Origin: Escherichia coli
GTDB taxonomy: Bacteria > Pseudomonadota > Gammaproteobacteria > Enterobacterales > Enterobacteriaceae
Strand: one strand, 5' to 3'
DNA length: 360 bases
Assembly (NCBI RefSeq): GCF_003334255.1
Contig: NZ_QOWU01000253.1
Position numbers and translations under genes: made by a program. The notes beneath the pieces were generated by a model. The model was not told the DNA's origin and ran no database searches. It worked only from the letters and a program-made list of their open reading frames with translations. Below, piece after piece: positions 1-360 of this stretch. Every line of letters begins with the position of its first letter. Within the stretch, counting starts at the first letter, position 1.

Positions 1-77
1 GGCTACGTAGCTCAGTTGGTTAGAGCACATCACTCATAATGATGGGGTCACAGGTTCGAATCCCGTCGTAGCCACCA
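1..77 (+). tRNA. metT: tRNA-Met, elongator type, anticodon CAU (CAT at 35-37); complete 77-nt gene with encoded CCA
   Basis: Acceptor stem 1-7 GGCTACG pairs perfectly with 67-73 CGTAGCC; discriminator A74; CCA at 75-77. Anticodon stem 28-32 CATCA pairs with 40-44 TGATG; 7-nt loop 33-39 CTCATAA has T two positions before CAT and A after. D-arm motif AGCTCAGTTGGTTAGAGC; T-loop TTCGAAT at 55-61. A fully paired G1-C72 end excludes initiator tRNA-fMet, which has an unpaired C1. Matches my recollection of E. coli elongator tRNA-Met; symbol assumes the first gene of the metT operon. Confidence 0.93.
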
Positions 78-87
78 TCTTTTTTTT
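78..87 (+). other. 10-nt inter-tRNA spacer, TCT followed by a T7 run; likely single-stranded precursor-processing region
   Basis: Sequence TCTTTTTTTT lies between the CCA of tRNA-Met and G1 of tRNA-Leu. It is too short for any promoter, so the genes must be co-transcribed. U-rich single-stranded spacers are typical endonuclease (RNase E) entry sites in polycistronic tRNA precursors; that role is inferred, not visible in sequence. Confidence 0.5.
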
Positions 88-172
88 GCGGGAGTGGCGA
101 AATTGGTAGACGCACCAGATTTAGGTTCTGGCGCCGCAAGGTGTGCGAGTTCAAGTCTCGCCTCCCGCACCA
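88..172 (+). tRNA. leuW: tRNA-Leu, anticodon UAG (TAG at 122-124), class II tRNA with long variable arm; 85 nt with encoded CCA
   Basis: Acceptor stem 88-94 GCGGGAG pairs perfectly with 162-168 CTCCCGC; discriminator A169; CCA at 170-172. Anticodon stem 115-119 CCAGA pairs with 127-131 TCTGG; loop 120-126 TTTAGGT gives anticodon TAG. The 85-nt length implies a long variable arm (around 132-149), as expected for Leu. T-loop TTCAAGT around 150-156. Consistent with E. coli leuW (tRNA-Leu reading CUA/CUG). Confidence 0.92.
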
Positions 173-195
173 TTCACCAGAAAGCGTTGTACGGA
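173..195 (+). other. 23-nt inter-tRNA spacer between tRNA-Leu and tRNA-Gln
   Basis: Sequence TTCACCAGAAAGCGTTGTACGGA. No recognisable -35/-10 promoter pair fits in 23 nt and there is no obvious stable hairpin; consistent with a processing spacer in a polycistronic precursor. Confidence 0.5.
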
Positions 196-270
196 TGGGG
201 TATCGCCAAGCGGTAAGGCACCGGTTTTTGATACCGGCATTCCCTGGTTCGAATCCAGGTACCCCAGCCA
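196..270 (+). tRNA. glnU: tRNA-Gln, anticodon UUG (TTG at 228-230); 75 nt with encoded CCA
   Basis: Acceptor stem 196-202 TGGGGTA pairs perfectly with 260-266 TACCCCA, giving the U1-A72 pair typical of bacterial tRNA-Gln; discriminator G267; CCA at 268-270. Anticodon stem 221-225 CCGGT pairs with 233-237 ACCGG; loop 226-232 TTTTGAT gives anticodon TTG. T-loop TTCGAAT at 248-254. Matches the tRNA-Gln1 (UUG) isoacceptor; I cannot tell glnU from glnW by sequence alone. Confidence 0.92.
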
Positions 271-285
271 TCGAAGAAACAATCT
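271..285 (+). other. 15-nt A-rich inter-tRNA spacer between tRNA-Gln and the second tRNA-Met
   Basis: Sequence TCGAAGAAACAATCT, purine/A-rich and unstructured; same reasoning as the other spacers. Confidence 0.5.
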
Positions 286-360
286 GGCTACGTAGCTCAG
301 TTGGTTAGAGCACATCACTCATAATGATGGGGTCACAGGTTCGAATCCCGTCGTAGCCAC
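286..360 (+). tRNA. metU: tRNA-Met, elongator type, anticodon CAU (CAT at 320-322); partial, truncated by the window edge 2 nt before the end of the CCA
   Basis: Positions 286-360 are base-for-base identical to positions 1-75 of the first tRNA-Met. The window ends at the first C of the CCA, so the gene presumably continues 2 nt beyond 360. Symbol is tentative, assuming the second Met copy of the metT operon. Confidence 0.9.

Follow-up and report, generated by a model that had tools for sequence, protein, structure and literature searches.

The window, a 360-nt stretch of Escherichia coli DNA, carries four tRNA genes, all called on the plus strand by ARAGORN and by Rfam RF00005 with its gathering score of 29 (Table 1). 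Both methods read them as Met(CAU)-Leu(UAG)-Gln(UUG)...Met(CAU) along one strand, which is the gene order of the metT operon. The Met, Leu and Gln genes do not differ by a single letter from those of K-12, as found by exact string match to the annotated genes of NC_000913.3, and leuW is the sole K-12 gene with the UAG anticodon. The window is the first four genes of the known E. coli metT operon, namely metT, leuW, one gene of the glnU/W type and metU from left to right.

The elongator tRNA-Met differs from the initiator tRNA-fMet or tRNA-Ile2 (CAU) in having a paired 1:72 end of the acceptor stem and in lacking three consecutive G:C pairs at the base of the anticodon stem. In the Rfam alignment of the window genes, all positions of the acceptor stem GGCUACG/CGUAGCC pair and the anticodon stem reads CAUCA/UGAUG, as in the elongator class. 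The window Met gene is identical to K-12 metT and metU, which are the elongator genes, specify the identical tRNA-Met and have no further such genes beside them in E. coli (PMC6265465). The two repeat copies are both functional gene copies for the cell's one elongator tRNA-Met.

Among the spacers, the one between metT and leuW varies in its T-run length, so that the spacer has 8, 9 or 10 nt among E. coli strains. The corresponding lengths are 7 nt for E. albertii and 8 nt for Citrobacter werkmanii.

Table 1. tRNA genes and spacers along the window
Feature	Position	Strand	Basis and remarks
Elongator tRNA-Met(CAU), metT equivalent, encoded CCA, first repeat copy	1..77	+	ARAGORN; Rfam 71.1 bits; identical to K-12 metT and metU
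metT-leuW spacer TCTTTTTTTT, 10 nt	78..87	+	Spacer comparison across ten E. coli loci
tRNA-Leu(UAG), leuW equivalent	88..172	+	ARAGORN; Rfam 57.6 bits; identical to K-12 leuW
leuW-glnU spacer	173..195	+	Locus comparison; same in every E. coli locus examined
Single tRNA-Gln(UUG)	196..270	+	ARAGORN; Rfam 62.1 bits; architecture comparison
Gln-Met spacer TCGAAGAAACAATCT	271..285	+	Locus comparison; same as K-12 glnW-metU spacer
Elongator tRNA-Met(CAU), metU equivalent, second repeat copy, 75 of 77 nt in the window	286..360	+	ARAGORN; Rfam 71.1 bits; 100% identical to 1-75; full 77 nt in AVS0747

Direct repeat of the Met genes

The initial annotation had described a perfect 75-nt direct repeat of tRNA-Met 285 bp apart, and this is what the repeat search of the 360-nt window returned. 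Positions 1-75 match 286-360 at every nucleotide, the two starts being 285 nt apart, and ARAGORN calls both as tRNA-Met(CAT). An exact pair of 75-mers is expected by chance about 3e-41 times in 360 nt. The second copy is visible for 75 nt because the window ends there, 75 of the 77 nt of the gene lying inside.

The extent of homology was read from strain AVS0747, where positions 1515-1874 of the locus are exactly the window. The identical run there is 78 nt, made up of the 77-nt gene including CCA and one upstream T. Comparing the flanks of the two copies, a check that the initial annotation had recommended, gave 40% identity over the 30 nt upstream and 23% over the 30 nt downstream, so the flanks are unrelated. 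The homology stops where the mature tRNA ends.

The only other repeat in the window is the conserved T-arm motif common to the Met and Gln genes, and the search for inverted repeats found none in the 360 nt. Two weak Rfam matches were dismissed as tRNA-shaped noise. One is the Plastid-ycf2 5′UTR RNA on the minus strand, antisense to both Met genes (1-75 and 286-360), with a sub-threshold 32.1 bits against a gathering score of 65.7; its model most likely contains tRNA-like sequence. The other is YrlA, with 17.9 bits against a gathering score of 69.

Chromosomal setting of the array

Exact 360/360 matches were found in E. coli AVS0747, O25b:H4-ST131 strain 751, TUM13066 and 23AR0151. All four have a six-gene array, Met-Leu-Gln(UUG)-Met-Gln(CUG)-Gln(CUG), located between asnB and ubiF. 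The window has no flanks of its own and inherits this placement via the exact match.

The window shares with the K-12 metT operon the mature Met, Leu(UAG) and Gln(UUG) sequences, the gene order, the leuW-Gln and Gln-Met spacers and, in the exact-match genomes, the chromosomal position between asnB and ubiF. It differs in that a single Gln(UUG) gene separates leuW from metU where K-12 has two, hence six genes instead of seven, and in a metT-leuW spacer of 10 nt instead of 9. The operon was reportedly first sequenced, as one of seven tRNAs, by Nakajima, Ozeki and Shimura in Cell in 1981. Both the operon and its repeat are already known textbook material, and tandem tRNA genes ordinarily show the phenomena described below.

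In AVS0747, metT is preceded at a distance of about 40 nt by a promoter-like TTGACG-17-CATAAT, and the last Gln gene is followed by a terminator made of a stem-loop and a T-run. The two sites fit the single polycistronic transcript reported for the metT array, which is processed by RNase P and RNase E (PMC2241853).

By BLAST, 5,424 of the 5,426 complete E. coli genomes have a match to the window, 19,597 of the 19,600 places being chromosomal; the search joins out-of-order pieces and the canonical array also reaches 100% coverage, so its identity bands are unreliable for counting variants. The unique flanks on the asnB and ubiF sides are present in 5,425 of the 5,426 genomes.

Phages often carry tRNA clusters and a few records of a plasmid collection match the window, so we considered a mobile element, phage or plasmid as the source of the cluster. 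The phage matches cover only about 22–24% of the window, all of it tRNA-Leu, at 86–89% identity. The best plasmid-collection matches are records of 0.28–4.9 Mb, several of which are as large as a chromosome, and no feature is annotated where the window matches. Given these partial matches and the near-universal chromosomal placement with unique flanks, we rejected a mobile origin as almost certainly wrong and take the window as part of a core chromosomal operon.

Two features of the surroundings were seen in passing. The ST131-type genomes have an extra stretch of about 430 nt between asnB and the metT promoter (about 735-1250 of the AVS0747 locus), with an ORF at 744-1181 on the minus strand of that locus. 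Its 145-aa product, WP_000943484.1, has a signal peptide-like N-terminus and matched no NCBIfam or Pfam family. In one sampled genome, H51 (NZ_CM177009.1 1713172-1716901), an IS1A-family element is inserted in the array flank on the ubiF/miaB side.

Array variants in complete genomes

Gene arrangements were counted in the 5,426 complete E. coli genomes by junction queries. Each query holds a whole gene with both of its neighbours, and the E-value cut-off can be passed only by a contiguous match. Arrays and junctions were read from assemblies alone.

The window's own arrangement, the Leu-Gln-Met junction with a single Gln, occurs in 71 genomes at 85 places. K-12 has a tandem glnU-glnW pair at this point with a 109-nt period (NC_000913.3 696756-696939). 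With one Gln(UUG) gene in the window and six genes in the exact-match genomes, the window represents a copy-number variant of the operon. It is a minority allele, Met-Leu-Gln-Met-Gln-Gln; the canonical array numbers seven genes, its two Gln(UUG) genes being in tandem. The 181-nt single-Gln junction was absent from all GTDB species-representative genomes scanned.

The initial annotation had proposed comparing array length across strains. In an evenly spread sample drawn by the unique flanks, 55 of the 59 arrays are canonical, three have one Gln fewer and one has one Gln more. A three-Gln(UUG) array was found also in AH19B041. Among all 5,426 genomes, 71 have the single-Gln junction, ten a duplication junction and eight a deletion or collapse junction. 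The array is polymorphic, and most of its variation comes from the 75-nt Gln repeats of 109-nt period, with the Met repeat contributing a small share.

Duplication junctions at the Met repeat

The junction Gln-spacer-Met-T-run-Leu is not in the canonical array and arises only by tandem duplication through the Met repeat. It was found in ten of the 5,426 genomes (0.18%) at 17 places, as single contiguous 182-nt alignments. These genomes have 11-gene arrays, confirmed in six loci. The expectation that the repeat alters tRNA gene dosage is borne out by this junction, if rarely.

The 11 genes are ordered in more than one way. The array of ST95-32 is Met-Leu-Gln-Gln-Met-Leu-Gln-Gln-Met-Gln-Gln and that of Origami2-DE3 is Met-Leu-Gln-Gln-Gln-Met-Leu-Gln-Met-Gln-Gln. 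TUM2805, STK78-E and GF130 share (Met-Leu-Gln)x3-Met-Gln(CUG), at about 1217-2267 of each locus. The T-run has the same length in all duplicated units of a genome, as expected for duplication in place. We infer that the duplications are biological.

The (Met-Leu-Gln)x3-Met-Gln(CUG) array stands on two backgrounds, whose flanks differ at 44 of 900 positions. It may have come about by independent events, by recombination of the array only or as a pipeline artefact.

Deletion junctions and probable assembly collapse

The reciprocal junction, where the metT leader is followed by one Met and then by the glnV spacer, indicates deletion or collapse between the Met copies and occurs in eight of the 5,426 genomes labelled complete. 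In MC1061 (NZ_CP195014.1 633539-633737), the locus is Met-Gln only, and in strain 536 (NC_008253.1 723221-723532), it is Met-Gln-Gln only; neither has leuW or Gln(UUG) there. By a separate query, leuW with normal spacers is present in 5,413 genomes and not in the other 13, its absence at the asnB-ubiF locus being seen in MC1061 and 536.

The segment between the Met copies holds the only tRNA-Leu(UAG) and tRNA-Gln(UUG) genes. The metT unit resisted deletion unless complemented, and metTU, leuW, glnUW and glnVX are predicted essential (PMC11480407). A reciprocal deletion would remove all tRNA-Leu(UAG) and tRNA-Gln(UUG) genes and should be lethal. Because the lost genes sit in this experimentally undeletable unit, the deletion in finished assemblies is most likely an assembly collapse at the Met repeat. 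The initial annotation had named such repeats a cause of short-read assembly collapse, and the eight assemblies, MC1061 and 536 among them, fit that warning.

Artefact and natural variation

Collapse in some assemblies raises the alternative that the single-Gln arrangement and most of the array-length variation are assembly artefacts from miscounting short tandem repeats. Besides the eight implausible collapses in finished assemblies, the variant arrays cluster by sequencing project. Of the 40 single-Gln genomes listed, 19 belong to the AVS, GF, TUM and IPCEC series, as against 3 of 59 in the evenly spread sample (Fisher p = 8e-7), and the same projects also supply collapsed assemblies. Some of the polymorphism seen may thus be due to the pipelines used. 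Furthermore, three K-12 laboratory derivatives with MG1655 flanks, ME8067, Origami2-DE3 and MC1061, have three different arrays, and two divergent flank backgrounds share the odd (Met-Leu-Gln)x3-Met-Gln array. The project clustering and the two-background array could come from clonal relatedness or from errors in resolving short tandem repeats.

Against a general artefact, independent laboratories have reported the six-gene array, and the flanks around it fall into at least five haplotypes. Swiss and US strains of the ST131 type agree exactly in both the array and its flanks. LY180, AQ15 and SL112 map to one chromosomal neighbourhood at about 0.76 Mb, where LY180 and AQ15 have the single-Gln junction at identical coordinates and SL112 has the three-Gln array. 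Moreover, one long read covers the whole of a 0.6–1.1 kb array, which makes it difficult for an error to create an expansion. We thus consider it unlikely that artefacts account for the single-Gln arrangement and most of the length variation, and favour a real single-Gln allele.

The haplotypes with the six-gene array include that of a K-12 laboratory strain with MG1655-identical flanks and that of LY180, a derivative of E. coli W. The presence of this array on at least five haplotypes suggests recurrence. A stronger reading makes the metT array a true hotspot where tRNA copy number has changed repeatedly in natural E. coli, free of artefact and perhaps selected for dosage, with the single-Gln allele arising independently on those haplotypes and (Met-Leu-Gln)x3-Met-Gln on two divergent backgrounds. 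This full version seems to us rather improbable. Our literature search found no paper on copy-number polymorphism of the metT array.

Probable concerted evolution of the Met copies

Arrays of other species were reached by a scan for the Leu(UAG) anticodon arm followed by local ARAGORN calls. In each of the five species examined, both Met copies of an array are identical to each other. Compared with E. coli over 77 nt, they have no difference in Escherichia albertii, one in Citrobacter werkmanii, one in Vibrio bivalvicida, two in Vibrio hannami and 12 in Shewanella sp., all 12 being in both copies. Within a genome, the copies of Leu(TAG) and those of Gln(TTG) do not differ among themselves either; in V. 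hannami this holds for 6 of 6 Leu(TAG) and 3 of 3 Gln(TTG) genes.

The Vibrio arrays repeat the same gene set many times, and their Met-Leu-Gln module is far more expanded than that of E. coli (V. hannami, and V. bivalvicida at 5559-6551). The V. hannami stretch (8331-9726) has six Leu(TAG), three Gln(TTG) and two Met genes with identical copies.

Identity within a genome goes with divergence between species, from 0 to 12 differences that are always common to both copies. This pattern is the signature of concerted evolution, which may proceed by gene conversion or by repeated duplication and loss of the unit. The Met copies would stay identical through selection, as both must make the same tRNA, together with homogenisation or turnover of the array copies by recombination. 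Bacterial multi-copy RNA genes such as the rRNA operons are similarly identical within a genome and diverged between species. The metT tract differs from them in comprising only the 77-nt mature tRNA, with the copies in one transcript.

Purifying selection on the tRNA might instead keep the copies identical all by itself, with neither conversion nor recombinational turnover. The homology stops exactly at the mature tRNA boundaries between unrelated flanks, and the elongator tRNA-Met is 75–77 of 77 identical across Escherichia, Citrobacter and Vibrio, which leaves little to homogenise. Selection alone suffices for the identity in E. coli but not for the 12 shared changes of Shewanella. The same one or two changes are also in both copies of Citrobacter and the two Vibrio species, and independent parallel fixation in two copies is unlikely. 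The Leu(TAG) and Gln(TTG) copies of V. hannami follow the same rule, and the duplication junctions indicate that copies do recombine. Selection as the sole cause is accordingly doubtful, and we prefer selection combined with recombinational turnover.

From the zero divergence, the initial annotation had suggested ongoing gene conversion between the copies. The shared changes in five species support concerted evolution, but that pattern does not demonstrate ongoing conversion in E. coli. The E. coli identity needs no gene conversion, given a tRNA-Met that hardly varies between Escherichia and Vibrio and a homology that does not reach past the mature ends.

Discussion

We consider it very likely that the whole is best explained by a single-Gln variant of the metT operon, whose Met repeat serves as a recombination substrate and whose apparent deletions are assembly collapses. 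The 78-nt homology appears long and close enough for recombination. The viable product would be a tandem duplication of the Met-Leu-Gln(-Gln) unit, raising the dosage of those tRNA genes.

The initial annotation had invoked RecA-mediated unequal crossing-over besides replication slippage. Repeats shorter than 200 bp and within a few kb undergo deletion and expansion prominently by RecA-independent template switching (PMC7145654). Deletions at such short repeats are accompanied by crossovers and expansions, which are attributed to template switching in post-replication gaps (PMC7145654). With 78 nt of homology 285 nt apart, the Met repeat falls within this regime, so RecA-independent template switching probably matters here no less than RecA does.

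The rearrangements of Lovett and co-workers (PMC7145654) resemble the metT case in repeat length and distance, for which both deletions and expansions are expected, and expansions are what the genomes contain at metT. Theirs were made with engineered 101-bp repeats on reporter plasmids and chromosomes, whereas the metT ones are known from genome sequences alone. In Pseudomonas fluorescens SBW25 (PMC10954465), tRNA dosage is likewise changed by spontaneous tandem duplication. The duplications there are described as large-scale, while the metT unit is 285–394 nt and bounded by tRNA genes.

The practical value of these results is in quality control. At least eight RefSeq genomes labelled complete, among them 536, a reference strain, and MC1061, a laboratory strain, are apparently without essential tRNA genes at this locus, and the list of such finished assemblies is the most useful by-product. 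Repeat collapse, the most likely cause, affects the tRNA gene counts and the codon-decoding inferences made from them. If the expansions and the single-Gln alleles are real, the metT array would illustrate, on a small scale and in nature, how very short repeats can vary tRNA dosage.
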